Source of the DNA: Escherichia coli | Lineage (GTDB): Bacteria; Pseudomonadota; Gammaproteobacteria; Enterobacterales; Enterobacteriaceae | Direction: 5' to 3' (one strand) | Assembly (NCBI RefSeq): GCF_048403405.1 | Contig: NZ_CP183131.1 | DNA: 64,000 nt | In this document: positions 5,374 to 53,473 of the stretch, piece after piece | How the letters are laid out: every line of letters begins with the position of its first letter | Numbering within the stretch: the stretch's first letter is position 1 | Translations under genes and position numbers: made by a program | The notes under the pieces: model-generated | Databases searched by the model: none | The model's input: only the letters and a program-made list of their open reading frames with translations | What the model was told of the DNA's origin: nothing

Positions 5374-5901
5374 TTACCCGCCAGCCAAGTGGTGCAGCCG
5401 CATGAACGGGATGTCATCATCCCAGCCATCAGGAGCGGGACCATAGCCTCCGCCCATACCACCTTGCGGTGCTGATTGCTGCACAGGAGCAGATTGCGTA
5501 CCGGCTCCTGTACGTTGCCCTTTTTGGGGCGCTGCACGTTGAGAGTTGTCCTGAGGTGCATTTCCACGACCACCAAGCATCTGCATTTCAACGCAGTGTA
5601 CTTCGGTGGTGTAGCGCTCGATTTGTTGGCTGTCAGTCCACTTCCGGGTGCGGTTGCTCCCTTCGAGATAGACTTGGGAGCCCTTTTTCAGGTACTCACC
5701 AGCGACTTCTGCCAAACGACCTTTAAGCACAATACGGTGCCACTCAGTATGCTCTCTTTGCTCGCCAGACTGCTTATCGCGCCACGTATCCGTTGTTGCA
5801 ACGTTGAAGTTGGCAACGGCAGTTCCGCTTGGCATGTAGCGAATTTCCGGGTCAGAACCGAGATTACCGACCAGAATTACTTTGTTGACGCCTTTAGACA
5901 T
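5374..5901 (-). CDS. ssb: single-stranded DNA-binding protein
   Basis: OB-fold N-terminus ([22 protein letters not shown]), glycine-rich linker, canonical C-terminal tip DDDIPF. Confidence 0.9.
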
Positions 5902-16689: not shown

Positions 16690-17182
16690 TTTTCACAGTC
16701 CCCCAGTAACGTGAGTCGAAGCTGAATGGGCTTTTGCCCATAAACCAGTAGTTATTCTCTTTCAGCGTGGTCTTGCCGTAAAAGTGGCTCTCTGGCAGAT
16801 GTAGTTTCCCTGCGAGCTGGAGCCCCTCTCCGACGACATCACCATTGACGGTGATCTTCCACTTATCGTTGATCTCGACTTTATCCCCCGGCATACCGGT
16901 GAGGATTTTGACCATGCGAGTCCCGTCCTTGTAGAAAGGCTGCATGTTCTTGGCTTGGAAGGCGTAAACAGCTCCCCTCTCCAGAGTTTGGTCGTTCAGA
17001 TCAATGAGGAAGAAGGTGTAACCCGGCAGGCACTTCTCCTGTTGTGGATCAATGCCAATACGGTAGCGGCTGGCAAAGGCCGCACCAGCAGCCCAAAGAA
17101 CCAGTAGTGTCACACCGGCCTTAACCCCGAAGCGCTTCCAGGATTCCTTTTTGACGAAATACTTCTTGAGTGGAAAATTCAT
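16652..17182 (-). CDS. trhF: TraF/TrhF signal-peptidase-like (S26 family) T4SS protein
   Basis: 176 aa with N-terminal membrane anchor; synteny downstream of traC. Confidence 0.65.
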   Translation of the reverse strand: MNFPLKKYFVKKESWKRFGVKAGVTLLVLWAAGAAFASRYRIGIDPQQEKCLPGYTFFLIDLNDQTLERGAVYAFQAKNMQPFYKDGTRMVKILTGMPGDKVEINDKWKITVNGDVVGEGLQLAGKLHLPESHFYGKTTLKENNYWFMGKSPFSFDSRYWGTVKNDQIIGRAYPLF

Positions 17183-19958: not shown

Positions 19959-20662
19959 TCAACACTCTCCAACCATGATTTCAGGTTCTTCGGACGTCCT
20001 TTGCTGACACGACCATCCGGAGCAACCACGAACGGAACGCCCTCAATCCCAATGAAATGAGCTGTCAGCAGCGTTTGATCGTATTGGCCGGGGTCGCAGG
20101 TTTCTTTTGAAGGAAGGGAACCCAAGGTGTTGTTCATCAGCGCATCGAGCGCGTGGGTTTTGTCTTTCGCGCAGTACAAGTTCTTTGCCAAGCGGTTGGA
20201 CTCAGCACCCAGAGCAGGAATCACGATAAATTTAAAGGTGTAATCATCCACCAGCGATTTGGCATCACCCATGAGCTGATGGCAAACCGCGCATCTAGGA
20301 TCGACAAAGACCACCACCTCTTTGTCACCACGCCCCATCGAAACGGTGTTCAGCGTGTCCACATCCATGCCCATGCTCTTGAAGTGGATACGCTCCGCTA
20401 CATCCCTCATTTGGGACATCGTGTTGAGGGGCTTCTTGCTCCACAGGTCGTAGATTTGTCCTGAAATAACAAATCGCCCGTTTTCAGAGAGGAACATGAT
20501 CTGCCCATCACTTTGGACGGCTCGAACCCCTTTGATGGGTAGCTCTACGATGTCCTCTATCTTCGCCGCTCTGGGATCGGTGATTTCCAATTTCGATGAC
20601 GCATGAGCCGTGCCGGTAATAATCCCGAACACCATCAGCGCCCCGAGTAATTTTGTCCGCAT
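19955..20662 (-). CDS. dsbC: DsbC-like thiol:disulfide interchange protein
   Basis: Signal peptide; thioredoxin CxxC (DPRCAVCHQL); stop overlaps traC start. Confidence 0.8.
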   Translation of the reverse strand: MRTKLLGALMVFGIITGTAHASSKLEITDPRAAKIEDIVELPIKGVRAVQSDGQIMFLSENGRFVISGQIYDLWSKKPLNTMSQMRDVAERIHFKSMGMDVDTLNTVSMGRGDKEVVVFVDPRCAVCHQLMGDAKSLVDDYTFKFIVIPALGAESNRLAKNLYCAKDKTHALDALMNNTLGSLPSKETCDPGQYDQTLLTAHFIGIEGVPFVVAPDGRVSKGRPKNLKSWLESVE

Positions 20663-20738
20663 GTCTATCCCCTAAGATTGGATTACTGGATGCTGGGCAG
20701 TGTATCCGGGGGAGGGAAATAGACTCGCCTCTGTAATA

Positions 20739-20754
20739 GCCCAATTTGGACAAT
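20739..20754. promoter_or_regulatory. GCCCAWTTTGGRCA-type box ~77 bp upstream of dsbC start
   Basis: GCCCAATTTGGACAA preceded by CTGT. Confidence 0.45.
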
Positions 20755-20766
20755 TCCAGCGCGATA

Positions 20767-20796
20767 CAAAAAAAAGCCCGGTCTGAACCGGGCTTT
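20767..20796 (-). terminator. rho-independent terminator after the giant gene
   Basis: AAAGCCCGG...CCGGGCTTTTTTTT on minus strand. Confidence 0.7.
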
Positions 20797-20810
20797 GAGA
20801 GGAATGAACC

Positions 20811-23800
20811 TTAGTTCATGGTAACAGCTTCGGATTTGCCACCAGAGTCATCGACCCCAACCAGAGAGATGGTCGGCATCGTTTCATAGGTGCCCTTGCT
20901 GATAGTCACTCGATCAGAGCTGATGCTCTGCAACTCACCGGCAATGGTCCATTCGTAGGACTTCATGCGGCCATCGGTATCTTCGCAGTTCGCATAAACG
21001 ATCCACGACCCAACGGTCTCTCGTGAGCTCAGGCTACATGCAGGCAACTTGTTCTCTGCCACATTGATGTTCACCTCGCCCTCAGCTTCATGCCCCATTT
21101 CTGAGGTTATTTTCAGCTTGATGCTGTGCTCACCAGCGCCCAGAGTTGCTCTGCCGTAGTAACCGCTGCTTTCCAACGGCGTACCATCTACCGAGTAGAC
21201 GCGAGTCGAAATACGGTCGCGTGGGTGGCCGCCAGAAATGTACGGTCGCAACAGCACATCCAGAGGCTCACGCTCGTATTTGTTCGAGCCAGAGTATTGC
21301 AGGTCGATAGCATAGGGCTCTGCCTGGCCGATCTTGAGCGGTTGCTCGATCACGGTTTCATGGCCGCGAGCATCACGGACAGTCACCTTGATGTTGTAAT
21401 CGCCCGGCTCATTGATCACAAAGGACCGGACAATATCCTGCCGCTGATCCTGAATCACTGCGTCTTCCGGCAACTCCCACTCGTAGGTCGGTTCTTCCAG
21501 CTTGCCGTTGAAGGCAATTGGCCGCACTGACGCGGTGATCGTCGCAGGAGCCACGTCAGCGTTCTTCCTGACCTGCATTCCGAAGCTCGGCCATACATAC
21601 TGCCACACGCGGGAGCGTAGGCTATGCGAGGCTTCTGCACCCTGATCTCGGTATCCTTCGATCCAGGTGGTGTACTTCGTTTCTACAGTAGCCTGGTTGA
21701 GGTCAGTGTCCGAAGGCACGTACTCAGCAGTATCACCCTGCACAATTGAGCCATCAGGCAGCGTGAAGAACCCGTTCAGCTTCACGTCCATCCCACGGTA
21801 AGGCAGGCTGGTTTCGGCTTTGAACACATACTTCTTACCGGTCTCAATGACTCGCGGCCCTGTCACGTAAGGACGGGGGGCCTTCACTGCTCGGAAGTCA
21901 ACTGCCGTTTTCGCAACTTCATAGGCATAGCCGTCATCAGCCGGTGCAGTGGCAGAGCGCACACGAGCCCACAGGCGGTATCGGGTTTCTTCATCGCTCG
22001 AAAGCGTGATGCTATCCCCTGTCTGCGCGTAGGTTTTGCCACCGTCAGTAGACCACTCAACAATGGCATTGCCACCGGAGATTGGCTCATCGTTCAACGT
22101 CAGGTTCGCTGTGTACTTGCCTTCACTTCCGACAAACAACGTGGTCGGGCCGATAACAGCAATATCAGGTTTGTCGTAAGCGACAACACTGACCGCTTCG
22201 GTGTACTTTTCCGCACCTGAGTTGACGTTCACCACCTTGGCCCGAACCTGGTACTCCCCCTTGTCGAAGGTCTTCACAAGCTGATACTTGTATCGATCTT
22301 CTGGGATGAACTGCTCCCAGGTTTTACCGTCGTCCTTACTGGTTTCCCACACAACCTGGCCGGTAGCCCGGAGATCCTGACGGTCGTCCAAAGATAGCTT
22401 GAACACAGCAGTGAACGGAGCTTCACCAGACAACTTGCGAGCCTCCACGCCAGCACCGATGGCACCACCACGAAGCACTGTCAAGAAGGCAGGTCTGATA
22501 GACAACTCTGTGCGGTTGTAACCCTCAACAGGGCTTTCCAGAACAGCCTCAGCAGCGATACGGACGGAGGAAGTATCCACACCAGACAGGTCTACTGAGA
22601 ACTGAGCTTCACCGTTCGATGCTTCCGCATAATCAGTGAGCGCAACCGTCTCGTTGTAGGCCTTTTGCTGGATCAGGCGTACTTTCCACACCCCCATCGT
22701 GTTAGCGTCATAGTCACCATCAGGTTTGTACTGATCACGGATGAGAACCCTAACCGGCAATGCCTGGGTGTCAATCGCGGTATCACCTTTAACTTCAACG
22801 ATAGGACGGATACTGTCAGAAGGTGCAGAGATAGCCCGGTAGACAACCTCAGTCTTCACATCAGGCACCTTGTTGTAGGCCGCGTTCACCTTGTAGGTGG
22901 TCTCCTCCCACAACGCTCGCTCATCGGTATTGATGCGGCGATACACCTTATTGGTGGCACCCCATCCCGGAGTGAAGGTCTCAGACTCAAGAACATCAGA
23001 GTTGCGCGATATGGCAATATCCAGATCAGCTCGTTCAGAGTTGATAATGGCATCACCCAGGTAGTTACCTGTCATCGGCACCAAGTAGATGTTGTCTTTG
23101 AAGTTGTAGTCGGAGGCTAGTTCAACGGTCGGAGCTGGTGGGTCAACCGCTTCGACATTGAAAGTCTCGTCGTTCAACGTCACCCGAGTGCCGTTACGGG
23201 TGAAAATACTTACCCGCCACCCCAGAGGGTGATCACCGTTCTCGGCCAGGGAACCTGACAACGAAGGAGATTCCGATAACGGGTCTTGGACCAGTCCATC
23301 GGGGATCTGCTGCCACTCGAACAGACAGGTGCGGCTTGCACTGCCAACAGCTTTGTTCGCGGCCTCGTTTTTCGCACGGTCAGCACTGAGAGTGATTGAA
23401 CAATCAGGACCTTTGCTCTGCTTGAAGTTCACATCAAAGTCTTCAATGACGCGATTCACCTGAGCAATGTCATCAATCGGGGTGTAACCAACAGAGCCAT
23501 AGGCAGTAGTTACCGTCAGGTTCTGAGAGCCAGACCCAACTTTTACCTTGGAACCGTCACCACTGAACAGGTACAGGCTGTATTCGACAGGTTGTTCACC
23601 AATGCTCACAGCCTGCCCCACCAGCCCGGCAACTTTCATCCCGTTGTTGTCCTGCGTAGTTTGTTCAGCCTCATCCGGAGTTCTGTCCCATTGGAGCAAA
23701 CACACCGGGTCACGAATTGGGTCTGCGGCCATAGCCACATCCTCTTTCGTGGTGAACCGGCAAGGCACACCCGACTCTGGCAGGGCATAGATTTTCACCG

Positions 23801-26342
23801 GGTCAATAACCTGGCGAATTGTCCATGATTCAGCCGAGAGCTTGGCCGTCCCTTTCCAGGTATTGATGTCCACAACCAAGATGGGTGAGTTCGGCGCGGA
23901 GGTCATGACAAGAAGACTGGAAGAGCCGACCACATCAGGAACAGCCGGTTTAACCGGAATGCTCAAACGACCACCTGACGCACCGAAATCATGTTGGCTC
24001 ATGATCCCCATTGTCTGGCCCGGCTCGATACGCACCCCATTCACCACCAGCGGCACTTTCGCATCAGAACGGAGGGTCGCAAACACGTCGTATGAACCTG
24101 TCACGACAGCACCATCACTGAGCGTCAGCGGCTTGGTCTCGATGATCCGCTTGCCATCTGCATGAACAAATTCATGAGTGACAGCGGGGACCATAACCTT
24201 GCCATCCATCCCATCCGCCAGCATCACCTGACGCGGTTTGTACTCGAAGCCAACCGCCTTTTGAACCGCGTTGCCTTGTGCGTCCTCACCGGAAACAGTC
24301 AGCGTGTAAGATTCCCCTTCCTTCAAAGACGGGAACATTACCGGGTACTCAAGGCGGAATCGACCTTTCGACTCCTCACGCCAAGACAACTGCACCTTGT
24401 CATCGGCTGGGCCTCCGACGAGGGCAATAGAGGTCAGCTTAGGACTCGGGTCGGCAGTATCAGTCAAGGTGATTACAACATCATCCAAAGACTGGATTGG
24501 TGCTCCATCACTGATCGATACGGTTAGTGTCGGCGCTGAATTATCTATGCTCATAGCATATTGGGAGCCAGTGAATACCTGCTTAACCTCATTACCGAAA
24601 GCATCTTTAGCTACGAGAGATATGCCGGTATATGTGCCCTCTGACAGATTCTCAGCAGAAAATGTGAAAAACCAATCATTTGTGCTACTACGAAGAACTT
24701 CAGTACGAGACAACGGACGTTCTTCGCCAGTCGAGGTTATCGCAGACGCACTTGAGTTGTTAGAAATAACCCACTGGTTAACACCCCAACCGTCAAATGA
24801 ATCAGGCTCACGGAAATGAGCTTTAAAAATCCGCCCATTTCGTTCTAACCCAGCAATTTCAGGAGGGTTAAGGTCATAGCAGAACGTTGCCCCAATCCGA
24901 TCAGACGGAAGTTCAGGCTTCCCTTCCGGTCGAGACCAATATCCAGGCCATGAACATGAGCGCCCACTGAACGATATATCCGTATCCACTTCTGCATAAG
25001 AAGCATTTGCCGGAATTTTAGTAGTAGGCAACCAAGATCCCCATAACTCCTGAGCGTAAGGTCTCGGCTCAACATGAAATCTCAGTTTTTTATAATGGTT
25101 AACTGAGCTCATATTAATGGTTTCACCGCGGACCCACTGACCATCATCCCTAAGATATTCAACATACTTACCGATGGGAGCCAAGCTAACCGATGGATCA
25201 GCTTTCACACTGACGGATGTATTACCAAGAGAGTTCATAACCCAGTCGTAAATAATAAACGACTTAGTTTTTGTCCCATGTTGCTGGAATACATCAGCTT
25301 GCGTCTGCCGATAATCATATGTACCGTCTTCGGCAATGATATTGCCTTCAATACAGTTTTTATAATCACACCAGTTACCGCTTTGAGCACCGTAAGGTGA
25401 AGAAGGATAGGAGTTTGTTTTGGGTATCCGGTAGAGCACCCTGTAGGTATCGGAATAAATGGTCATTCCGTTCTGATAAGGCGCAAAACCTGATAGGGCC
25501 TGACCATTAACCTTAAAAGTTGAGGCCTGCGGGTTCTTAGGGTCATACACTGCTACTGGCTCAGGATTCTCTCCAGACTTTGCACCTACTGAATCCCAAG
25601 CAATAGGATAGGCTATTGACCCTTTGTTCCCTGCTTTATCCAGGGCCTCGAAATGAAGCGTATATAGATCCTCCCCATTAGGGAACACAGTGCTCCAGTT
25701 CAACAACTGGCCTTGGCCGTTGGCGTAATTAACCGAGACAACAGGACTCCTCTTGCCTTTGCTATCTACAGCATACGCCTGTATAGAGGAAACCGAAGAA
25801 CCGGCATCAGATGCAGACACATCTATACCTGAAAATCGGTTAGGACCTCGCAGTAGCGTTCCATCAGAAAGCGCCCGGTTCCATTCCCCTTTTACTGTCA
25901 CGTTTGCCAAACTTGGCGCTGTCGTATCGACTTGAAGCGGGTATTCATCAGTCTGAACGGAACTTCCGTCTGACGCCAGTATTTCGGCCCTTAGTTTGTA
26001 GACTCCCTCGGAAGGAGCCGGTAGTTGAAGTTCCGCACCATAGTAGGATTTTCCACCCACTGTGATGCGATCAGTAGCCCCAAGAAGGTGGCTGGTCGCT
26101 GTCGAAACCACTGTTCCATCCGACCGAATCACCGAAATCTTTACCTTTCGGTCGATACCGGCACTCAAGGCAAACGAGATATTGCCCGTTGGGTTGGCAT
26201 AGTTGGCATTCGGAGTCAGAGACCGTTGCGTACCATCTGGAGCCTTAAAGGTGTATTCCAGCAGCTCTGCATGAGCAGCACCAGCGGTAAGAACCGCCAG
26301 AGCCCCAAGCATCGCCGGAATTTTAGGCTTGAAATTGATCAT
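20811..26342 (-). CDS. giant secreted protein (~1,840 aa), probably built of repeated beta-rich / Ig-like modules; putative surface adhesin
   Basis: Single uninterrupted ORF; start set at ATG with GGAGA RBS giving signal peptide MINFKPKIPAMLGALAVLTAGAAHA; T/S/G/V/D-rich repetitive composition; own terminators on both sides. Confidence 0.7.
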   Translation of the reverse strand: MINFKPKIPAMLGALAVLTAGAAHAELLEYTFKAPDGTQRSLTPNANYANPTGNISFALSAGIDRKVKISVIRSDGTVVSTATSHLLGATDRITVGGKSYYGAELQLPAPSEGVYKLRAEILASDGSSVQTDEYPLQVDTTAPSLANVTVKGEWNRALSDGTLLRGPNRFSGIDVSASDAGSSVSSIQAYAVDSKGKRSPVVSVNYANGQGQLLNWSTVFPNGEDLYTLHFEALDKAGNKGSIAYPIAWDSVGAKSGENPEPVAVYDPKNPQASTFKVNGQALSGFAPYQNGMTIYSDTYRVLYRIPKTNSYPSSPYGAQSGNWCDYKNCIEGNIIAEDGTYDYRQTQADVFQQHGTKTKSFIIYDWVMNSLGNTSVSVKADPSVSLAPIGKYVEYLRDDGQWVRGETINMSSVNHYKKLRFHVEPRPYAQELWGSWLPTTKIPANASYAEVDTDISFSGRSCSWPGYWSRPEGKPELPSDRIGATFCYDLNPPEIAGLERNGRIFKAHFREPDSFDGWGVNQWVISNNSSASAITSTGEERPLSRTEVLRSSTNDWFFTFSAENLSEGTYTGISLVAKDAFGNEVKQVFTGSQYAMSIDNSAPTLTVSISDGAPIQSLDDVVITLTDTADPSPKLTSIALVGGPADDKVQLSWREESKGRFRLEYPVMFPSLKEGESYTLTVSGEDAQGNAVQKAVGFEYKPRQVMLADGMDGKVMVPAVTHEFVHADGKRIIETKPLTLSDGAVVTGSYDVFATLRSDAKVPLVVNGVRIEPGQTMGIMSQHDFGASGGRLSIPVKPAVPDVVGSSSLLVMTSAPNSPILVVDINTWKGTAKLSAESWTIRQVIDPVKIYALPESGVPCRFTTKEDVAMAADPIRDPVCLLQWDRTPDEAEQTTQDNNGMKVAGLVGQAVSIGEQPVEYSLYLFSGDGSKVKVGSGSQNLTVTTAYGSVGYTPIDDIAQVNRVIEDFDVNFKQSKGPDCSITLSADRAKNEAANKAVGSASRTCLFEWQQIPDGLVQDPLSESPSLSGSLAENGDHPLGWRVSIFTRNGTRVTLNDETFNVEAVDPPAPTVELASDYNFKDNIYLVPMTGNYLGDAIINSERADLDIAISRNSDVLESETFTPGWGATNKVYRRINTDERALWEETTYKVNAAYNKVPDVKTEVVYRAISAPSDSIRPIVEVKGDTAIDTQALPVRVLIRDQYKPDGDYDANTMGVWKVRLIQQKAYNETVALTDYAEASNGEAQFSVDLSGVDTSSVRIAAEAVLESPVEGYNRTELSIRPAFLTVLRGGAIGAGVEARKLSGEAPFTAVFKLSLDDRQDLRATGQVVWETSKDDGKTWEQFIPEDRYKYQLVKTFDKGEYQVRAKVVNVNSGAEKYTEAVSVVAYDKPDIAVIGPTTLFVGSEGKYTANLTLNDEPISGGNAIVEWSTDGGKTYAQTGDSITLSSDEETRYRLWARVRSATAPADDGYAYEVAKTAVDFRAVKAPRPYVTGPRVIETGKKYVFKAETSLPYRGMDVKLNGFFTLPDGSIVQGDTAEYVPSDTDLNQATVETKYTTWIEGYRDQGAEASHSLRSRVWQYVWPSFGMQVRKNADVAPATITASVRPIAFNGKLEEPTYEWELPEDAVIQDQRQDIVRSFVINEPGDYNIKVTVRDARGHETVIEQPLKIGQAEPYAIDLQYSGSNKYEREPLDVLLRPYISGGHPRDRISTRVYSVDGTPLESSGYYGRATLGAGEHSIKLKITSEMGHEAEGEVNINVAENKLPACSLSSRETVGSWIVYANCEDTDGRMKSYEWTIAGELQSISSDRVTISKGTYETMPTISLVGVDDSGGKSEAVTMN

Positions 26343-26481
26343 CGCATTCTCCATTCGTTTTGAGTTACAAGAACCCAATGCTGGAGGTTACGGGAGGGAG
26401 TGCATAAACATGGGCTGTGGAAGTGCCCTTTTTGAGCAAATAAGGAAATAGTTGGAATTTGTTATGACTGGACTTTTTGCC

Positions 26482-26510
26482 AAAAAATAAGGGCAGCTTT
26501 TAGGCTGCCC
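26482..26510 (-). terminator. rho-independent terminator after traA
   Basis: GGGCAGCC...GGCTGCCC hairpin + T-run on minus strand. Confidence 0.7.
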
Positions 26511-26542
26511 CTATCACCCGTTGATTAACGGCAAGGTGTCTT

Positions 26543-26926
26543 TTACACCCCCAGGCCATTGCTGAGTTGCACAACAGCCGGGATGACCTTCTCTGCATGT
26601 TCCAGAGTAGCAGACATGATGGATTCCACTACGGTCGGGGAGTTGTACAGGCCCATACCGCCACCGATACCCATAGCGAAAGCCATGAGGCTCTGGCGAG
26701 CGATACCACCAACAACACCGACCAGGATCATCGCACCCGCAACGATTCGACCCAAAGTACCTTGGGTCCAATCCTTGAGAGTTACCCATACGTCGTCAAA
26801 CGCTGTACCACCAGTACCAGCGTGGGCCTGATCCGGCACGAGCAGGAAGGCTACCACCATCAACCCCAGGAAGAGGAAGAGTGCGTTGTTTTTACTTGAG
26901 GCATTCGCCAACTGATTTGCGTTCAT
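26543..26926 (-). CDS. traA: TraA-like pilin precursor
   Basis: Small, very hydrophobic, glycine-rich; last gene of traLEKBVA block; start set at ATG with AGGAG 9 nt upstream. Confidence 0.7.
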   Translation of the reverse strand: MNANQLANASSKNNALFLFLGLMVVAFLLVPDQAHAGTGGTAFDDVWVTLKDWTQGTLGRIVAGAMILVGVVGGIARQSLMAFAMGIGGGMGLYNSPTVVESIMSATLEHAEKVIPAVVQLSNGLGV

Positions 26927-26938
26927 CAAGAACATCTC

Positions 26939-27517
26939 CTATTTGGTTGTTTCAGACTTCGGTTCGTGTTGTACCGTTTGCAGCGGTCTCAAAACTGGCT
27001 CACTTTGCGGTGTGCCATCCCCAATCACCCACCTGCGCGGTTCGATTTCGGTATAGACATACCCTGTCACGATGAGATCACCATTGGTGTCCTCCCAGGG
27101 AGCTACCCAAATCCGCATAACCTGTGCTGGTGTACGAATTGGAATCGGGCGATCCGGAAGACGCGGTGCGACATAGTTGTCAATCACCGGGTCTCCGGAG
27201 CTAGATGAGTTCGCTGAAACGTTTGAGGAACCTTCGCCATCCGCTTCCGCTTTGGCCTCGACTTCCTCTGGTTTCATTGGGCGCGGGACATTTCCGTCAT
27301 TGGTTGCGGCGTAAACGTCTCGCGCTGACATACACTGAACACCATTCGGCATTCCCGGACAGCTATACTCATCCTTGCCGATGTTGAACGTCGAACAGCC
27401 CGACAAAATAAGTAGCGCTGCACCCACCCCCAACATCTTTGCGGATCTTACTGCCTGTTCCTTTTGAGCCTCGCCTCTGGAACTGCCCTTTCTGGTCAAA
27501 ATGTTCAAATTTTTCAT
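26939..27517 (-). CDS. traV: TraV-like T4SS lipoprotein
   Basis: Lipobox LILSGCS; conserved cysteines; true start may be an internal ATG. Confidence 0.7.
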   Translation of the reverse strand: MKNLNILTRKGSSRGEAQKEQAVRSAKMLGVGAALLILSGCSTFNIGKDEYSCPGMPNGVQCMSARDVYAATNDGNVPRPMKPEEVEAKAEADGEGSSNVSANSSSSGDPVIDNYVAPRLPDRPIPIRTPAQVMRIWVAPWEDTNGDLIVTGYVYTEIEPRRWVIGDGTPQSEPVLRPLQTVQHEPKSETTK

Positions 27518-47365: not shown

Positions 47366-47874
47366 TCTTCACTAAGCAGGAACGCCCAGCGCTCTTCTGC
47401 TTTTTCTGGGTTGTCTTTGGCCTGTTTGATCATGATCTCGGCGGCGTTAAAGCCTACCTCTCCACTGAACCGGCCCCATGAATGGCTATGCCACTCGCGC
47501 ATCACACTTCGGCCAAGCGATGCAAGTTCTGGACTTACACCCTCATGGAGGGCATAGAGCTCCCAAGCATCCCACCCGTATCGTAATAGGTTGTGCCCTG
47601 GGGCGTTAAAGGCCTGAGCAGCCTTGAACCGCTCTCCAGGCTCCTTCCCTCTAACATCCACACCCTGGAGCACCAACCCCATTACCACTTCAATGACCGG
47701 CTCGCGTTGCTTCTTTGCCAGCTCGATGGCAGCCACCAGCATTGCTTTGGCGTCAGCAAATTTCCCATGCCCTTGGCACATACCGCAGGTTTCTTTGGAA
47801 GGGGAAAAGTCATAAACACCGGAACCAGCACAGAGGCGGCATGTCATGTCAATCATGGGCTCTTCTCTCCTCAT
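47350..47874 (-). CDS. protein with DnaJ-type zinc-finger repeats (CRLCAGSG, CGMCQGHG)
   Basis: Two CxxCxGxG motifs near N-terminus. Confidence 0.55.
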   Translation of the reverse strand: MRREEPMIDMTCRLCAGSGVYDFSPSKETCGMCQGHGKFADAKAMLVAAIELAKKQREPVIEVVMGLVLQGVDVRGKEPGERFKAAQAFNAPGHNLLRYGWDAWELYALHEGVSPELASLGRSVMREWHSHSWGRFSGEVGFNAAEIMIKQAKDNPEKAEERWAFLLSEEWMVE

Positions 47875-48556
47875 ACTCTTCGATGCGCTCTTTCAGACGC
47901 TGAACCACTGGTGCGAGCTCAGGGATAGCTTCCGCTTCCTCAAGCGTGTATCGCTTGTCTTCCTGGTAATCGACTATTTGAGGAGGCCTTGGCTGTTTAG
48001 GGAACTCAGCAAAGTCATTCAGCGACATCGAGGTAGGAAGTCCTCCTTCAATCTCACCTTTTTCGTTGAGTGACTGGGTGACGATAAGCTGTGTTCCGCC
48101 CACCTCGGTATCAAAGCGGTCATCAAAGCGCTCACCGATAGTCCAGCCGCCACGGCCAAGAACACAGGTCGTACTCATACGTAGGCGATTGAATGCTTTA
48201 GCGTCATCCCAGTTCAAAGGATTTTCATCCATGAGGAAAAAAGGCGCTTCGTCCCGAACGAACACCTTGGACTTGGCGTTATCGAAGATCGGCCCAAACA
48301 CCCCCTGCTGGAGGTATGGTTCGACCTTCTCTGCAAGATCCTGGTGCCCTTGAGAACGCAGCGCCTCATAGAGCTGGGTGATTGTTTGTTTGCCGGTGCC
48401 CGGAAGGCAGGACAATACTGTCTGCTTTTCCTCGTCACTCAGGCTTACCATTCTGGACAAAAAGCTGACTACCAGCTCGTTGTGCCCATCGACCGTTTCA
48501 ATGTTGAGCTTGTTCTCGTCCATCTTCTTCCTCAGTAATCGGTTCGATAAATTCAA
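47849..48556 (-). CDS. hypothetical protein (235 aa)
   Basis: ORF in operon. Confidence 0.5.
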   Translation of the reverse strand: MNLSNRLLRKKMDENKLNIETVDGHNELVVSFLSRMVSLSDEEKQTVLSCLPGTGKQTITQLYEALRSQGHQDLAEKVEPYLQQGVFGPIFDNAKSKVFVRDEAPFFLMDENPLNWDDAKAFNRLRMSTTCVLGRGGWTIGERFDDRFDTEVGGTQLIVTQSLNEKGEIEGGLPTSMSLNDFAEFPKQPRPPQIVDYQEDKRYTLEEAEAIPELAPVVQRLKERIEEYEERRAHD

Positions 48557-48866
48557 TGGAGTCCATGCTTACATGACTGATAATGGCTTTCAGGCCGCAG
48601 CAGTCGCATGGTTCAAAGGTCAGTTCTGATCCCTTGGGAGACTGATGCGTGACCGTTGCCACAGCCCCTAGAGGGATCACCCCCCAGCCGTTTTTTAGTA
48701 CCCGAGTAGTTCTGACCAGCCGACCTTTGTACTCTCGTTTCAGTTTCGGATGCGGCACTACCGCATATCGCTTACTCATTTCGGTCCCCTTGTACCAAAG
48801 GCTCGACAACCAGCTCTTGAGCTTCGTCCCAGTCGGACACCTTTGCATCACCAAACGCAAAGGCAA
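48498..48866 (-). CDS. hypothetical protein (start probably internal ATG ~48779)
   Basis: ORF; overlap with upstream gene suggests later start. Confidence 0.4.
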   Translation of the reverse strand: MPLRLVMQRCPTGTKLKSWLSSLWYKGTEMSKRYAVVPHPKLKREYKGRLVRTTRVLKNGWGVIPLGAVATVTHQSPKGSELTFEPCDCCGLKAIISHVSMDSIEFIEPITEEEDGREQAQH

Positions 48867-49158
48867 TTCGCATAGCCACTGTCGGCCTGCCTATTTTCAT
48901 CAAGTAAGCCGCAGCACCGGCACACATCGACTCTTGTCCCGAAGGTGCATAGTTACCCTCTTCATCCCATTCACCACCTGACTTTGAATGCACGGTCTTG
49001 TGGCAATGAAACGTCGTCATGTCGTTTTCAACGATGTCGTTGATGATGCCTTCTAATCGCCCAGGGACCAGCTCGATAGCGCCCTCCTTCCGGAATGGAC
49101 AGTTGGCGCAAGGTTTCTTCAAACGGAGATGATTTGCTTGCTTTGGCATACATATCAC
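48772..49158 (-). CDS. cysteine-rich small protein (CANCPFR...HCHKTV), first gene of the operon
   Basis: ORF ~89 bp downstream of a box. Confidence 0.5.
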   Translation of the reverse strand: MICMPKQANHLRLKKPCANCPFRKEGAIELVPGRLEGIINDIVENDMTTFHCHKTVHSKSGGEWDEEGNYAPSGQESMCAGAAAYLMKIGRPTVAMRIAFAFGDAKVSDWDEAQELVVEPLVQGDRNE

Positions 49159-49246
49159 TTTTACAGTATCATTTTATGATTCTATGATATAGCCATATTC
49201 CGTGTAGTCAATATCTCACTAACAATTACTTTCTATCGGACGCTTA

Positions 49247-49261
49247 CGCGCCCATTTTGGG
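49247..49261. promoter_or_regulatory. GCCCAWTTTGGRCA-type box ~89 bp upstream of the 49158 operon start
   Basis: GCCCATTTTGGGCAG. Confidence 0.5.
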
Positions 49262-49314
49262 CAGATAGACAAGTTATTTGGGCGTTTGGAGTGTGCGAGG
49301 TGGACAGCGGGGAG

Positions 49315-49332
49315 ACTTTCACATGTGAAAGT
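49315..49332. promoter_or_regulatory. perfect palindrome ACTTTCACATGTGAAAGT (parS-like)
   Basis: Same core as 31436 and 52721. Confidence 0.6.
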
Positions 49333-49467
49333 TTTGTTTCTTGGTATCGTTTTATTGTCCCTTGATATTATTTTATGATGCTGTAATAATCATAAATAAG
49401 GGCCGCATCGCTCTTCGACCTTCGTTGCAGCCCTTACAACACAATCAAGCAATTAAGGAGCTTTGTT

Positions 49468-49611
49468 ATGCTGCAAGGCAATACTAACACGAATAAGCGC
49501 ATCCCGCTCGCGGCGTTCATGAAATGGCCGCTGGCGAAACGTCAGGACTTCATCGACCGGGAAATGTCCGGTTGCCCCGACTTTATCAAGACGTCTTTGC
49601 TTCGGCATTAA
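49468..49611 (+). CDS. possible small protein (47 aa)
   Basis: AAGGAG 8 nt before ATG; followed by hairpin; below ORF-track cutoff. Confidence 0.35.
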   Translation: MLQGNTNTNKRIPLAAFMKWPLAKRQDFIDREMSGCPDFIKTSLLRH

Positions 49612-49702
49612 GGCGATCAGGCAGGAAAGCAAAGAACCTCGCTTCGGCGGGGTTCTTCGTTTCTACCTCTTGAATGTTTCGTCAGAACAAACTGGAGCGC
49701 TT

Positions 49703-50338
49703 ATGTCACCAGAAACACAGCAACTTACATCCAAGGCTTTATCTCTCATCGAGCAGTCCCGATACAGAATGGGCACATCTCGGTTTGTTGAGGCCTTTAT
49801 TGACCAGTGGGCATACTTGCAGACTGGCCTATACCCAGCCAAGGAGGAGATCCCGGAAGAACTTCAGCCGGTCGCCTTCGAGCTCTCTCACGTCCTGTCT
49901 GCCGCCATTAAGCGCGACCCCACCAGCGATGTTTTGGGTTACGTCCTAAGCATGTCTGGCTTCCACAAGAAGGGCACCAATTACTTCCCCACTCCTCCAG
50001 AGATTGGCCGCTTGATGTCACTCATTGTTGGCTCACAGTCTTCGGCAGACTTTTATGAGCCCTGCTGTGGTTCTGGCATCAACGCCATTCACTGGATGGA
50101 AAACCTGATCGAGAACCACGGTCCCGAAGCATTGAGAGAAGCCTCAATCTACCTGGAAGACATCGATCCGTTGATGGTGAAGTGCTGCATGATCCAGCTA
50201 TTCCATTATTTCGAGTCCCGCAATACCACTCCCAAAACGCTGAGTATCGTCGGCATAGACACCCTTAGCAGACGAACCAAGAACATCGCCTACTACGCCG
50301 AAAAACCTCCAGCAACCGCCGCTACCGTGGCAGCATAA
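49703..50338 (+). CDS. N6-adenine methyltransferase-like SAM-binding domain protein, apparently lacking catalytic (D/N)PP(Y/F) motif
   Basis: FPTPPEIGRLM and FYEPCCGSG motifs; GGAG RBS; only 211 aa. Confidence 0.5.
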   Translation: MSPETQQLTSKALSLIEQSRYRMGTSRFVEAFIDQWAYLQTGLYPAKEEIPEELQPVAFELSHVLSAAIKRDPTSDVLGYVLSMSGFHKKGTNYFPTPPEIGRLMSLIVGSQSSADFYEPCCGSGINAIHWMENLIENHGPEALREASIYLEDIDPLMVKCCMIQLFHYFESRNTTPKTLSIVGIDTLSRRTKNIAYYAEKPPATAATVAA

Positions 50339-50364
50339 AAAAACCCGCCGATTGGCGGGTTTTG
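50337..50364. terminator. bidirectional terminator (CCCGCCGATTGGCGGG hairpin)
   Basis: A-run / hairpin / T-run. Confidence 0.7.
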
Positions 50365-50390
50365 CATTCAATGCGCTGCTCTATGGCACC

Positions 50391-50669
50391 TTACAGTTTT
50401 CCGTACCGGTTCAAGAACGAAGACCTGTCTAAGATCCCCCAGTCTGTCAGCATGTAGTAGCCGGTGGCACCTCGTTCGCCGGTAGACTCCCTGACGAACA
50501 AGATATTCATTCCGAACTCATCACGCAGGGCAGACAACTGTCTCTTGATCGTTGATTCAGGAATATTTGTTGCCTTGTGAAGGTCTTGGAGACTTGGCTT
50601 CTCCGTTTTAGACAGGGCATTCACCAAAGCAAATTTTCTTTTCATGTCCTGTGAGATCTTCATATTCAC
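50391..50669 (-). CDS. small HTH-type protein downstream of parB
   Basis: 92 aa; helix-turn-helix-like segment ESTIKRQLSALRDEFG. Confidence 0.5.
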   Translation of the reverse strand: MNMKISQDMKRKFALVNALSKTEKPSLQDLHKATNIPESTIKRQLSALRDEFGMNILFVRESTGERGATGYYMLTDWGILDRSSFLNRYGKL

Positions 50670-50711
50670 CTGTTCTTGACAGGCCCAACCTCTCTGGCTG
50701 GGCCTCCTTTA

Positions 50712-51893
50712 TTAGCCTTCGACACTCAGGAGTTCAATGTCTGACACAGGCACATGAACATGCTTTTCCTTGCCTTCGCCATCGAGCGTTTTAACCCAGA
50801 CAGTAGACGGAACCAGAGCAACACGGTCGGTCATGATGACTCCACGTTTGGTCTCGCCATCCAGGTTAACGTTGACAGCAAAAATCAAACTGTCAGCCCG
50901 GACGTTCTTCCATTCCTTGTCCTTCGGCAGAGGAGGAAGAGCATCACCGCCTTCTTCATCTTTGTCCTTGCCGCTGTTATCTGGCTGCTTGACAGGATCT
51001 TTGTGCTCACCCTCTTCATCACGCAAAGGGTCTTCGTCATCATCGTCCTGACCATTGGAATTTTTACCCCCTTCCAGTTCCTCCTGGGCAAGGTTCAGGT
51101 CGTCATTCCCGGTTTGTTCCGACGTACCATCCCCACCCGAGTTGAGGGATTGCTCGTCGGTGTTGCCAGCGCCAAGCTCATCATTCTGGTGGGAGCCAGT
51201 CAGTGGGCCTTTTTCCATTTCGTCTTTGATACGTTTGGCATCATTCAGCAGCTCACGGCTTTGTTTACGAGTAATCCCGTCAGACATAGCCACCGCGCAG
51301 ACGGCGCGACATCTTTCTTCATTCAGATCGAACAAGAGACGAAGGTTATTCAAGGTCTCTGTATCAGAACATACTTCATTATCGTATAACTCACGCACAC
51401 AGTCAGGTAGCTTGAGCAACGACAGATGCGTAGATACGAAAGTGATATTCTTACCGAGCCGATCAGCAATATCCTTTTGCTTCCAACCTTCTTCAATAAA
51501 CAGGTTTAACGCCTCGGCAATCTCTACCGGAGTCAAGTCATCCCGCTGGATGTTTTCGATCAGCTCACCAGCAGTCTCGTCCAAGTTGTTCTGGACCTTA
51601 TCATTCACCACCAAGTCAATGGTCTCGATACCAGCGTGTTTACACGCTCTCCAACGCCGCTCCCCTTTTTGGATGACGAACTTGCCTTCTTCGTTCTTCG
51701 GGAACACGATGATCGGAGACTGCTGCCCTTCGGTCAGCAAGGTTGCCGCCAGCTCTTCAATGTTACGGAAGCGCTTACGAACCTGGACCTTGGATACAAC
51801 GTCGTCAACAGGTACGGTAAGAACCTCTTTGCCTTTCTTGCCTTTGGCGGCTTTAGCAAGTTCGGACAGGCCTTTTAAATTGTTCAATGCCAT
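50712..51893 (-). CDS. parB: ParB-family partition / DNA-binding protein with acidic low-complexity linker
   Basis: ParB box GERRWRA; 393 aa; downstream of parA. Confidence 0.85.
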   Translation of the reverse strand: MALNNLKGLSELAKAAKGKKGKEVLTVPVDDVVSKVQVRKRFRNIEELAATLLTEGQQSPIIVFPKNEEGKFVIQKGERRWRACKHAGIETIDLVVNDKVQNNLDETAGELIENIQRDDLTPVEIAEALNLFIEEGWKQKDIADRLGKNITFVSTHLSLLKLPDCVRELYDNEVCSDTETLNNLRLLFDLNEERCRAVCAVAMSDGITRKQSRELLNDAKRIKDEMEKGPLTGSHQNDELGAGNTDEQSLNSGGDGTSEQTGNDDLNLAQEELEGGKNSNGQDDDDEDPLRDEEGEHKDPVKQPDNSGKDKDEEGGDALPPLPKDKEWKNVRADSLIFAVNVNLDGETKRGVIMTDRVALVPSTVWVKTLDGEGKEKHVHVPVSDIELLSVEG

Positions 51894-51896
51894 CGC

Positions 51897-52688
51897 TTAG
51901 CCCACCTTCTCTAATAGTTCTTCCAACACCGCCTCAACTTCTTTGGCCGCGACATGTCCATAGCGAAGCTCCCAGACAGGGATGCCATCAGTCGTCGCCG
52001 TATCGAGCGGAGGCCGGTGCATAATTTTGTTCTCAAACAACAGATCCGGAACTGTGTTCTCCAGCGACTTGAGGGCTTTGTCGTGATTGACAGAGCGGTC
52101 CATGTCGTTGATCACGATGCCCAGGATCTCCAAATCTTGGTTGTACGCCTCGCGCACACCAATAATCGTGTTCAGGAGACCTTCTACGCCGTCCACAGCG
52201 AAGCCAGAGAGCTTTACTGGACATGCCACATGGGTAGACATCACCAACGCTGCCACCAGCTTTCTGCCGAGGCTAGGCGGACAATCAATCAGCACGTAGT
52301 CGTAGTTCTCAAACAGCTCAGCCAAATGGCGAGCCGGATTCATGGCCTGGTCAAGAGGCACAGCCTCCATCTCAAACAGATCCGGGTCGTTTTTCGGCGT
52401 ATGAATGAGGTCTGCACCGCAAGGGCAGTGCATGACCTCAATGCCGTCCAGCTCGTAAGCGAACAGCTCTGCGGTTTTGGTTCCTGTGAGGATGGGCTCG
52501 TAGTCACCATCCTCAAGCTCTCGTCTGGGGGCCAGTCGAGAGGACGTGTTCCCCTGACCATCCATATCCAAGACCAGCACTTTCTTTTTCTTCTGTAACG
52601 CCAGATAAAAGGCCTGCTGGATACAGAGGGTACTCTTACCCACTCCGCCTTTCTGGTTGGCGAAGCTGATTACTTTTGCCATACCCAC
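51897..52688 (-). CDS. parA: ParA-family partition ATPase
   Basis: Deviant Walker A KGGVGKST. Confidence 0.9.
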   Translation of the reverse strand: MGMAKVISFANQKGGVGKSTLCIQQAFYLALQKKKKVLVLDMDGQGNTSSRLAPRRELEDGDYEPILTGTKTAELFAYELDGIEVMHCPCGADLIHTPKNDPDLFEMEAVPLDQAMNPARHLAELFENYDYVLIDCPPSLGRKLVAALVMSTHVACPVKLSGFAVDGVEGLLNTIIGVREAYNQDLEILGIVINDMDRSVNHDKALKSLENTVPDLLFENKIMHRPPLDTATTDGIPVWELRYGHVAAKEVEAVLEELLEKVG

Positions 52689-52718
52689 CTCTATTTTGGT
52701 TTCTCGCAGGTGATCAAG

Positions 52719-52736
52719 ACCACCCCCAAACTTTCA
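52719..52736. promoter_or_regulatory. parS-like palindrome CTTTCACATGTGAAAG ~33 bp upstream of parA start (candidate centromere/operator)
   Basis: Third copy of the palindrome; ATCATAAAATGAT motif 12 bp away. Confidence 0.6.
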
Positions 52737-52855
52737 CATGTGAAAGATTGTAGCGATCATAAAATGATACTGCAATATCTAATTATGGTTCTGTTAAAAC
52801 AAACTTTAAACAAAAAAACGGCCATGAAGGCCGCTTATTGACAAGGTTTGTGCTG

Positions 52856-53167
52856 TCAGCGCAATTGATTTGCTGCTCCAAGCCCATTCGCCAATAACTG
52901 CATCGCATCGTTGAACAGCGCGGAGCCCCGTTCCGGTGTGAGCAATTCCGGCATATCTTCTCGCGGCCAAGTACCGGCTACTTGAATGAGCAAACTGGCA
53001 GCCCAGTGGATCTGCTTTTCTTCACTTTCATCGGCCAGAGTGCATACGACGGGGAAACCGTACTTACGCCCCCAGCGACTCACCTCTTTGAACGATACCA
53101 GCTCAGGCTTTTGCAAATCCCGGCTGTAGGCCTCAGCTATCATGTGGTTCAGTTCTTTAGCGTCCAT
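52856..53167 (-). CDS. hypothetical protein (103 aa)
   Basis: ORF with downstream terminator hairpin; last backbone gene before resistance island. Confidence 0.5.
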   Translation of the reverse strand: MDAKELNHMIAEAYSRDLQKPELVSFKEVSRWGRKYGFPVVCTLADESEEKQIHWAASLLIQVAGTWPREDMPELLTPERGSALFNDAMQLLANGLGAANQLR

Positions 53168-53473
53168 TTATCCCACTCTATTGTAAACAAGACATTTTTA
53201 TCTTTTATATTCAATGGCTTATTTTCCTGCTAATTGGTAATACCATGAAAAATACCATGCTCAGAAAAGGCTTAACAATATTTTGAAAAATTGCCTACTG
53301 AGCGCTGCCGCACAGCTCCATAGGCCGCTTTCCTGGCTTTGCTTCCAGATGTATGCTATTCTGCTCCTGCAGCTAATGGATCACCGCAAACAGGTTACTC
53401 GCCTGGGGATTCCCTTTCGACCCGAGCATCCGTATGAGACTCATGCTCGATTATTATTATTATAGAAGCCCCC

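Follow-up and report, generated by a model that had tools for sequence, protein, structure and literature searches.

A giant Ig-like protein encoded between traA and dsbC of IncC plasmids is a conserved backbone product with homology to RSP2 and RSP of IncHI plasmids

The closest described relatives of the protein considered here come from IncHI plasmids. RSP of the IncHI1 plasmid R27 (R0009, 'IncHI-type conjugal transfer protein RSP', 1,432 aa) is a secreted Ig-like protein of high molecular weight that low-temperature conjugation requires; it is encoded inside an MPF_F/MOBH transfer region, directly upstream of trhF-trhW-trhU-trhN, and it lowers motility by binding flagella. RSP2 (R0055, 794 aa) is a polypeptide of its own, made from a gene some 40 kb away from rsp and published as confined to IncHI1. 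The two proteins co-immunoprecipitate and each binds conjugative pili; RSP2 export requires RSP (PMC8730810).

In IncC plasmids, an 1,843-aa protein of pKAZ3 (200.75 kDa) was detected in the secretome; its knockout strongly lowered conjugation at 25 °C in liquid, not at 37 °C, and left motility unchanged, unlike RSP/RSP2 (PMC8730810). TraDIS of pMS6198A, as far as it is cited in that paper, found the gene dispensable for transfer at 37 °C (Hancock et al., 2020, cited in PMC8730810). Two alleles, orf1832 and orf1847, serve as markers separating type 1 from type 2 IncC plasmids (Harmer and Hall; PMC6872532). In pVCR94, where the gene is vcrx076, an AcaCD motif (p 1.7e-11) and the transcription start have been mapped (PMC4207636 supplement), vcrx076 RNA rose from 3 to 2495 upon AcaCD complementation (PMC4207636 supplementary tables), and an AcaCD/SgaCD reporter has been built on its promoter (PMC8373056). 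The gene, its regulation and its transfer role are therefore already known, and the gene goes unmentioned in a published account of IncC rearrangements. We describe here how the copy in one sequenced plasmid compares with these systems.

The window, a 64,000-nt stretch of contig NZ_CP183131.1 from Escherichia coli (GCF_048403405.1), is the conjugative backbone of a type 2 IncC (IncA/C2) plasmid (MOBH, MPF_F), and its giant ORF is the conserved gene orf1847/vcrx076, with neighbours annotated as TraA and DsbC. The segment 20600-26560, which holds the ORF and its flanks, is 100% identical in nucleotide sequence to IncC plasmids including pT212, which is typed IncC. A nucleotide search with this segment matched 977 plasmid records, 406 of them at ≥99% identity, and the exact protein is present on 382 contigs; the long ORF is therefore no sequencing accident. 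An original prediction, made from the DNA sequence before this analysis, had described a single ORF of about 5.5 kb encoding some 1,840 aa, and such an ORF is indeed present: it encodes 1,843 aa, and the PGAP call has the same coordinates. The longest frame (20811..26378, minus strand) starts at a TTG and would give 1,855 aa. This start is ruled out by the pVCR94 transcription start, which maps to about 26377-26379. Two in-frame ATGs follow, at 26354 and at 26342, and the name orf1847 reflects the 1,847 codons counted from the former. ATG 26342 is preceded, at a 6-nt spacer, by a GGAG, the gene's own ribosome-binding site as predicted (Table 1).

The published entries orf1847/orf1832, vcrx076 (pVCR94), ALG87338.1 (pKAZ3) and MS6198_A094 (pMS6198A) are the same gene in the same traA-dsbC position, equal in length (1,843 aa, or 1,847 when counted from the upstream ATG), with no difference of substance. 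pVCR94 and the window agree in their intergenic lengths (200 and 148 nt), and the computed mass of the window protein, 200.78 kDa, compares with 200.75 kDa for the 1,843-aa pKAZ3 protein. From identical length, spacers and molecular weight we argue that the pVCR94 and pKAZ3 genes are equivalent to the allele in the window.

Table 1. Features of the orf1847 locus in the window.
Feature	Position	Strand	Basis or remark
CDS including stop	20811..26342	-	orf1847 allele, type 2 IncC; vcrx076 of pVCR94; WP_085281193.1 'Ig-like domain-containing protein'
Shine-Dalgarno GGAG, 6 nt before ATG 26342	26349..26352	-	sequence
Sec-type signal peptide, aa 1-25 (MINFKPKIPAMLGALAVLTAGAAHA, predicted cleavage before ELLEY)	26268..26342	-	read from translation
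DUF4165	25920-26276	-	Pfam
Big_3_2	25590-25925	-	Pfam
Big_3_3	24207-24677	-	Pfam
Hyper-variable allelic cassette, aa 145-611	24510..25912	-	entire difference between orf1847 (type 2) and orf1832 (type 1)
RSP2-like module, aa 5-812	23907..26330	-	end-to-end with R27 RSP2/R0055 (794 aa) and with 818- and 806-aa IncHI2 paralogues; E 1e-53 to 1e-65
RSP-like module, aa 837-1834	20841..23834	-	IncHI1 R27 RSP aa 372-1405 (of 1,432), IncHI2 RSP aa 487-1405
AcaCD-binding box of the gene's own promoter (TTATTTGCTCAAAAAGGGCACTTCCACAG)	26415..26443	-	position transferred from pVCR94 Table S3 (PMC4207636) via identical intergenic lengths
AcaCD box of downstream dsbC-traC-trhF-traWU operon (neighbour, outside gene)	20729..20757	-	pVCR94 mapping, core match
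Rho-independent terminator, traL-traA operon: GGGCAGC-loop-GCTGCCC then UUAUUUUUU	26481..26520	-	-22 kcal/mol, z -3.2
Rho-independent terminator, giant gene: AAAGCCCGGT-TCAG-ACCGGGCTTT then T8	20765..20796	-	-18.3 kcal/mol, z -4.4
Break point of ISEcp1-blaCMY-2-blc-sugE insertion, many IncC plasmids	26449..26450	.	traA-gene spacer; 6 nt upstream of AcaCD box

The gene was predicted to be insulated by terminators on both sides, and hairpins were found at both (26520-26481, -22 kcal/mol; 20796-20773, -18.3 kcal/mol), the latter beginning 15 nt past the stop codon and followed by eight T. A scan for consensus promoters and terminators returned the downstream terminator only, missed the hairpin after traA, and gave no convincing sigma-70 promoter, as expected because the promoter is activator-dependent. 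The predicted AcaCD box sequence and its spacing are present in the window; AcaCD dependence itself was established experimentally in pVCR94 (PMC4207636). The window contains seven copies of the core TTGNNCAAANNGGGC, where 2.0 would be expected. Two of these copies coincide with the vcrx076 and dsbC box positions mapped in pVCR94, and a third, at 27485-27499, lies just upstream of traV, where an AcaCD site has also been published. Taken with the literature, these data indicate that the gene is transcribed alone, under an AcaCD-dependent promoter of its own; the unit is bounded by the traL-traA terminator on one side and the dsbC-traC promoter on the other. The gene would therefore be turned on together with the mating apparatus.

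An independent cassette had been proposed, and it is independent in that the gene probably forms a monocistronic unit, with its own promoter, ribosome-binding site and terminators. It is not inserted cargo: under AcaCD control in pVCR94 and represented in 977 plasmid records, it is a conserved part of the IncC/IncA backbone. The proposed variability of the position likewise holds for the site and not for the gene. The interval between traA and the dsbC homologue s054 is a variable hotspot of the sister SXT/R391 ICEs (PMC2791158), namely hotspot 2, in which the pilin gene traA and s054 bound the same interval; its cargo varies by element and is unrelated to the IncC giant gene. In IncC, ISEcp1-blaCMY-2 inserts in this interval, just upstream of the giant gene's promoter: matches to CMY-type plasmids end at query position 5850, homology starts at window position 26449, and in one locus (L011) sugE lies upstream of the giant gene. 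Comparison of the interval among relatives, which had been suggested as a check, went against the cargo reading. One conserved gene, at times duplicated, occupies the interval throughout the A/C-like family; the order traA-gene-dsbC is held in relatives down to 30% identity (range 30-56%), and a Pseudomonas megaplasmid has a homologue in the same position, 32.6% identical over aa 699-1840. Since one gene family fills the interval in all of these, we rejected the view that the gene is variable cargo of the traA-dsbC/s054 hotspot. The two paralogues of a distant relative (L006) lack any tra gene within 10 kb.

A cleavable signal peptide had been proposed, and the N-terminus, MINFKPKIPAMLGALAVLTAGAAHA|ELLEY, looks like one of the Sec type; the AHA/AQA-ELLEY junction is kept in homologues. 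The tandem Ig-like, beta-rich make-up that had been suspected was borne out by the domain search and by structural models. Pfam gave DUF4165 (aa 23-141), Big_3_2 (aa 140-251) and Big_3_3 (aa 556-712), all with E ≤ 1e-20, and a further, weak match to PKD. AlphaFold2 models of aa 24-830 and aa 831-1843 are all-beta arrays with mean pLDDT of 84.2 and 82.8, respectively, the first 16 residues of the latter falling below 50. The product is a chain of roughly 20 beta-sandwich (Ig-like) domains. An NCBIfam scan of the whole protein returned no family and a PDB sequence search no match; Foldseek comparison of both models with the PDB gave no specific fold, only generic multi-beta-sandwich arrays (TM 0.10-0.26) from A2M/complement, titin/MyBP-C, contactins, mastigoneme, GhpA and S-layer proteins. 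Beyond the signal peptide, Pfam and inspection of the sequence revealed no long hydrophobic run, lipobox, beta-barrel or membrane anchor. Export of the window protein is accordingly a prediction from its signal peptide and from the failure to find an anchor, and it is the pKAZ3 protein that has been detected in a secretome.

Two modules account for almost the entire length of the protein. The N-terminal one aligns with RSP2 residues 6-788 (E 1e-53), and the homology extends to the signal peptide, both in RSP2 and in the 818- and 806-aa paralogues that flank repHI2 in IncHI2; RSP2 and the IncC protein have the order DUF4165 - Big_3_2 - Big_3_3 in common, at the same residues. The C-terminal module is homologous to the C-terminal ~1,000 aa of RSP (24% identity, E 2e-64 and 2e-70 for the IncHI1 and IncHI2 proteins). 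RSP differs in its N-terminal ~370 aa and has no DUF4165/Big_3 module. In the AlphaFold2 models, a low-confidence linker at about aa 831-850 connects the two modules. By homology, then, the IncC protein is the one-chain equivalent of two interacting IncHI proteins, a complete RSP2 and the C-terminal part of RSP, whereas in R27 these are separate polypeptides; we did not find this equivalence in the literature that could be searched. In contrast with the published restriction of RSP2 to IncHI1, homologues were found in IncHI2 and, as an N-terminal module, in IncA/C-like elements. Homology and domain order place the predicted protein among the plasmid-encoded Big proteins of conjugation (the RSP/RSP2 family of Huttener et al.).

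The difference between the type 1 and type 2 alleles is sharply bounded. The type 1 protein (orf1832) has 1,828 aa, and its divergence is restricted to aa 145-611, where the nucleotide sequences of the two types are not similar and the aa sequences are about 23% identical; outside this cassette they are 93-97% identical in nucleotide and 95-100% in aa sequence. The GC content of the cassette is 46%, against 53-54% in its flanks. At least four old cassette classes cut across lineages, class C being that of R27 RSP2 and class B that of the IncHI2 paralogues and of IncC type 1, and tandem gene copies bear different classes. This population pattern suggests that the cassette may be a swappable specificity module. 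A sharply bounded cassette as the type 1/type 2 difference was not found in the literature that could be searched. There is a parallel in TraN, the mating-pair stabilisation adhesin of F-like and IncC plasmids, which is also a conjugation surface protein with a variable part that defines specificity groups, is encoded in the same operon block, and determines IncC Sfx specificity (PMC11493245). TraN has no sequence or fold kinship with the giant protein, however, and is an outer-membrane, transfer-essential protein, whereas the IncC giant protein is secreted and conditionally required.

We consider it likely, overall, that this is an AcaCD-driven IncC backbone gene whose product, a secreted Ig-like chain, aids pilus-mediated contact. 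A role in contact between donor and recipient had been predicted, and it agrees with the published pKAZ3 secretome and the 25 °C conjugation defect (PMC8730810), although it is not new. The protein would be exported by Sec, after which disulfides would form (it has five close Cys pairs, and dsbC is adjacent). It would then reach the cell surface and coat the conjugative pilus like RSP and RSP2 in R27, and so stabilise pilus-mediated contact where this is fragile, at low temperature and in liquid. Pilus binding has been demonstrated directly for R27 RSP/RSP2, and for the IncC protein it is presumed by analogy. Because the pKAZ3 knockout showed no motility change, the mechanism may differ partly from that of RSP/RSP2. 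Contact with the pilus or the secretion machinery may fall to the conserved, RSP-like half, and the exchangeable cassette in the RSP2-like half may decide on the binding target. We advance more tentatively, as one possibility, that the protein is a natural RSP2-RSP fusion in which aa 145-611 form a module that is exchanged horizontally and determines specificity, choosing the surface, recipient, pilus or flagellar partner to be bridged; the stand-alone RSP2 paralogues of IncHI share its ancient classes, of which there are at least four.

Other roles for a long chain of Ig-like domains have to be weighed against aid to pilus-mediated contact. The protein might be an adhesin or biofilm factor carried for the benefit of the host, binding abiotic or host surfaces for colonisation and affecting conjugation indirectly through cell aggregation. 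Its architecture is like that of fibrillar adhesins, Foldseek gives just generic multi-Ig arrays, transfer at 37 °C does not require the gene, some plasmids have lost it, and the L006 paralogues have no tra genes nearby. A promoter that depends on AcaCD and is induced alongside the tra genes, a place inside the transfer region that is fixed over 30-100% identity, and homology to the pilus-binding RSP and RSP2, which are required for IncHI transfer, nevertheless make this unlikely, as does the lack of a beta-barrel or lipobox anchor in a protein whose only Pfam families above threshold are DUF4165, Big_3_2 and Big_3_3. An anchored giant adhesin (autotransporter, intimin/invasin or T1SS RTX type) was rejected: the Pfam scan gave no beta-barrel translocator, no LysM/beta-barrel N-terminus and no RTX repeats with a C-terminal T1SS signal, and the protein has a classical Sec signal instead. 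That the protein is a periplasmic protease trap like alpha-2-macroglobulin is scarcely credible, even though Foldseek ranks E. coli ECAM, Salmonella A2M and human A2M high among its matches to both halves. The TM-scores are just 0.10-0.19, a generic beta-sandwich likeness; the CxEQ thioester motif is absent from the protein, the all-beta models lack a helical thioester domain, no A2M Pfam family is significant (the nearest, macroglobulin MG4, has E = 0.55), and the pKAZ3 protein was found outside the cell (PMC8730810). For want of the thioester motif and domain, this identity was rejected.

The cassette bears on a further alternative, in which the protein is a protective or discriminating coat that shields the pilus or surface from pilus-specific phages, antibodies or donor-donor mating, the cassette then serving phage or immune escape and not recipient choice. 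Ancient, sharply bounded classes found across lineages are what diversifying or frequency-dependent selection typically produces in surface molecules, RSP is a strong antigen (PMC11268884), and tandem copies carry different classes. We nevertheless hold a coat to be improbable, as eexC and sfx already explain IncC exclusion, vcrx076 did not emerge as a candidate from the TraDIS of exclusion (Table 1, PMC11493245), and the knockout decreases, not increases, transfer at 25 °C.

IncC plasmids are major carriers of carbapenemase and cephalosporinase genes. This gene already serves in their typing and has already been shown to aid transfer at environmental temperature, so that finding it here is no advance in itself; of possible use are the link of the IncC protein to RSP2 and RSP, and the recognition of the type 1/type 2 polymorphism as a discrete cassette. 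The one-chain IncC form supports functional coupling of the two IncHI partners. If the fusion and exchange proposed above are true, the type 1/type 2 split, so far a typing convention, would mean that the two types differ functionally in their mating range or conditions, and two-copy elements would hold two specificities. Vaccines or nanobodies directed at related proteins have been proposed; if the cassette sets binding specificity, antibodies raised to one class would fail to recognise the others, and the IncC types would gain a testable molecular meaning. Some natural IncC plasmids are without the gene or have an interrupted copy (Table 1, PMC6872532), and in H46 an ISSen4 insertion interrupts it.

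The giant gene is already known, as orf1847 of IncC plasmids and vcrx076 of pVCR94. Window 20600-26560 is 100% identical at the nucleotide level to many plasmids typed IncC, MOBH and MPF_F (977 matching plasmid records in all), and the exact protein is present on 382 contigs, its cluster at 90% identity having 318 members. In pT212, the gene is preceded by traL-E-K-B-V-A and followed by dsbC-traC-(orf)-trhF-traW-(EAL)-traU-traN. Type 2 IncC plasmids are defined by orf1847 together with rhs2, i1 and i2, while type 1 has orf1832 (PMC6872532; PMC9709138). Because the giant gene is this type 2 marker, the window is a type 2 IncC backbone.

The longest frame starts at TTG 26378 (1,855 aa), with in-frame ATGs at 26354 (1,847 aa) and 26342 (1,843 aa). 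The last of these has a GGAG ahead of it, spaced by 6 nt, and is the start annotated in RefSeq; TTG 26378 is excluded as a start codon because the transcription start transferred from pVCR94 coincides with it. Judged by its form, the N-terminus (MINFKPKIPAMLGALAVLTAGAAHA/ELLEY) is a predicted Sec signal peptide, and no further long hydrophobic run was found in the protein. Sequence and folding therefore bear out what the original prediction had claimed here: one long ORF with a signal peptide and its own ribosome-binding site, between terminators on both sides. A consensus terminator scan missed the traA terminator despite its stable fold and U-tract.

Coordinates of features in the window and of homologous genes in relatives
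Feature	Position	Remarks
Candidate sfx	9939-10799 (+)	861 nt, 286 aa; adjoins traN
EAL-domain gene	14756-15427 (-)	within traW-traU part of transfer operon
dsbC AcaCD box	20757-20729	
Giant-gene terminator	15 nt past stop	10-bp GC-rich hairpin + eight T; -18.3 kcal/mol, z -4.4
Giant gene	20811-26342 (-)	longest frame 20811..26378
Cassette, aa 145-611	24510-25912	type 1/type 2 difference
Giant-gene transcription start	~26377-26379	transferred from pVCR94
Giant-gene AcaCD box	26443-26415	TTATTTGCTCAAAAAGGGCACTTCCACAG; position transferred from pVCR94
ISEcp1-blaCMY-2-blc-sugE insertion	26449/26450	in blaCMY-2 plasmids
traA terminator	26481-26520	traA stop at 26543; hairpin then UUAUUUUUU U-tract; -22 kcal/mol, z -3.2
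Third TTGNNCAAANNGGGC match	27485-27499	just upstream of traV
GC-rich segment	58001-63000	GC 0.585-0.60 vs ~0.52 backbone
IncHI2 RSP2-like genes	L003:7929-10385 and 14659-17079	flank repHI2
R27 RSP2-like gene	L005:926-3085	truncated by IS30
Distant paralogue pair	L006:10001-21180	1,838 + 1,832 aa
Enterobacter hormaechei tandem copies	L007, CP042571.1, 4326-15448	1,828 + 1,815 aa
Pseudomonas aeruginosa homologue	L012:5659-12429	2,256 aa

In pVCR94, an AcaCD ChIP-exo peak lies upstream of vcrx076 (47775..53306, 5,532 nt), its motif (p 1.7e-11) covering the stretch from 101 to 73 nt before the ATG. Transcription starts 35-37 nt ahead of that codon, the gene has no operon partner, and its RNA rises from 3 in ΔacaCD to 2495 in the complemented strain (PMC4207636, Carraro et al. 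2014; Table S3/Dataset S1). The gene length and the spacers to traA (200 nt) and dsbC (148 nt) are all the same in the window. The core TTGNNCAAANNGGGC, common to the giant-gene and dsbC boxes, occurs seven times in the window, where 2.0 occurrences would be expected; two matches fall at the positions mapped for these boxes, and a third at traV, another published AcaCD site. Going by these pVCR94 data, the giant gene is probably transcribed on its own, as had been proposed for it, yet as a member of the conjugation regulon. In blaCMY-2 plasmids, an ISEcp1-blaCMY-2-blc-sugE insertion parts the gene from the traA terminator, and the giant-gene promoter remains intact because the insertion lies 6 nt upstream of the AcaCD box.

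The gene had also been taken for inserted cargo in a known variable position, which the relatives with readable gene context contradict. Full-length homologues (1,805-1,874 aa, 100% down to 29% identity) occur in Vibrio, Shewanella, Photorhabdus, Oceanospirillaceae and Enterobacter. The slot between the pilin gene traA and dsbC-traC is kept in a Vibrio plasmid (L009) at 55% identity and in L010 at 30%; it holds two full-length tandem copies in an integrated chromosomal element of E. hormaechei, and a longer version in the 398-kb megaplasmid of P. aeruginosa PA83, 32.6% identical over aa 699-1840 of the window protein and with an unrelated N-terminal ~1,100 aa. No tra genes lie within 10 kb of the tandem pair of full-length paralogues in L006. 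The corresponding interval of SXT/R391 ICEs, the sister family, runs from traA to s054 and is their variable hotspot 2 (PMC2791158), probably the source of the ‘known variable position’; in the A/C-like family, in contrast, it is held by the conserved giant gene.

The beta-rich, tandem Ig-like composition of the protein was correctly foreseen. Pfam places DUF4165 at aa 23-141, Big_3_2 at 140-251 and Big_3_3 at 556-712 (E 1e-20 or better), and nothing but a weak PKD match in the C-terminal half. AlphaFold2 models built on small custom alignments are all-beta and confident for aa 24-830 (pLDDT 84.2) and aa 831-1843 (pLDDT 82.8), together comprising ~20 beta-sandwich domains, with a low-confidence stretch at ~aa 831-850. 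Foldseek against the PDB returned only generic multi-Ig/FN3/MG arrays (TM 0.1-0.26) for both models, and NCBIfam and PDB sequence searches gave no match. The ten cysteines lie in five close pairs, as would suit an oxidised protein outside the cytoplasm whose gene adjoins dsbC.

In a tblastn search of all plasmids, aa 941-1834 match ‘IncHI-type conjugal transfer protein RSP’ (E 1e-60) and aa 28-812 have their counterparts in separate proteins of ~800 aa, the ‘Ig-like domain repeat proteins’ of IncHI plasmids. Compared directly, aa 837-1834 align with residues 372-1405 of the 1,432 of R27 RSP (E 2e-64), and aa 5-812 with residues 6-788 of the 794 of R27 RSP2 (R0055; E 1e-53), the latter end to end and including the signal peptide; the 818- and 806-aa IncHI2 paralogues flanking repHI2 match similarly (E 1e-65 and 2e-54). 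The published RSP2 domains (DUF4165 23-142, Big 143-254, Big_3 537-693) mirror those of the IncC protein. Because of the matches to both proteins and these mirrored positions, the giant protein is, by sequence comparison, a one-chain equivalent of the RSP2 and RSP pair, a Rosetta-stone-type relationship. Synteny agrees: both in R27 and in IncHI2, trhF-trhW-trhU-trhN follow immediately after rsp, and this RSP-like arrangement recurs in a Shewanella plasmid. RSP and RSP2 co-immunoprecipitate, RSP2 export needs RSP, and both decorate the conjugative pilus (PMC8730810). The papers covered credit the IncA/C protein with no more than ‘also containing Big domains’ and treat RSP2 as IncHI1-specific, whereas IncHI2 plasmids (L003) carry two RSP2-like genes; R27 has a further, truncated one (L005). 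Literature searches on vcrx076 and DUF4165 found no paper linking the IncC protein to RSP2 and RSP.

In 50-aa windows, the giant protein is 98-100% identical to orf1832 except at ~aa 130-620, where identity is 12-34%. Nucleotide similarity to type 1 is 93% for 26449-25913 and 97% for 24509-20600; between them, at 25912-24510, even 11-base words pick up none; GC content is 46% in this stretch (47% in the type 1 allele) versus 53-54% in the flanks. What sets type 1 and type 2 apart here is a discrete cassette. When cassettes and flanks of 17 proteins were compared separately, the cassettes formed at least four classes with ~20% identity between them: A (window protein, P0031, P0048; 47-55% among themselves), B (type 1, P0021, IncHI2 Ig818/Ig806 proteins; 33-36%), C (P0019, P0037, P0040, P0047, R27 RSP2; 29-54%) and D (P0046, P0050-52; 38-58%). 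Flank identity follows another tree: the window protein and type 1 share 95% in the flanks and 23% in the cassettes, and P0031, P0040 and P0046 share 78-89% in the flanks with cassettes of classes A, C and D. Tandem copies also differ, being B and C in L007, and A and an unclassified one in L006. The pattern of classes suggests an exchangeable specificity or antigenic module. We regard these classes and the RSP2-RSP fusion relationship as modest new leads.

A role in donor-recipient contact had been guessed correctly, and both this role and the proposed knockout are already published. Huttener et al. (2022) studied ALG87338.1 of the IncA/C plasmid pKAZ3 (1,843 aa, 200.75 kDa; DUF4165, Big_3_2, Big_3_3); the computed mass of the window protein is 200.78 kDa. 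[quoted passage not shown] As cited there, the gene (MS6198_A094 on pMS6198A) had come out of a TraDIS screen at 37°C as dispensable. In some naturally occurring IncC plasmids it is missing or interrupted (PMC6872532; ISSen4 insertion in H46), which fits a conditional accessory function.

The giant gene is switched on by AcaCD along with the T4SS genes, as measured in pVCR94, and its product has a predicted Sec signal; extracellular release and a conditional need in transfer are published for the same-length pKAZ3 protein. We propose that the giant protein would decorate the conjugative pilus of IncC plasmids in the manner of RSP and RSP2, and so would stabilize contacts made in liquid and at low temperature. 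Its RSP-like half, the conserved one, may engage the pilus or the secretion apparatus, while the target may be set by the cassette of the RSP2-like half. Rival readings, both unlikely, are a colonization adhesin, against which the AcaCD control speaks, and a protective or antigenic coat, against which the 25°C transfer defect speaks; an A2M-like protease trap is contradicted by the absence of a thioester motif from the protein.

Elsewhere in the window, the EAL-domain gene (c-di-GMP phosphodiesterase-like) is kept in the Vibrio (L009) and Pseudomonas (L012) relatives. The gene adjoining traN is, by length and position, a candidate for sfx (vcrx085), which encodes a surface-exclusion lipoprotein (PMC11493245). 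The GC-rich segment was probably acquired as an island, for instance a resistance region.
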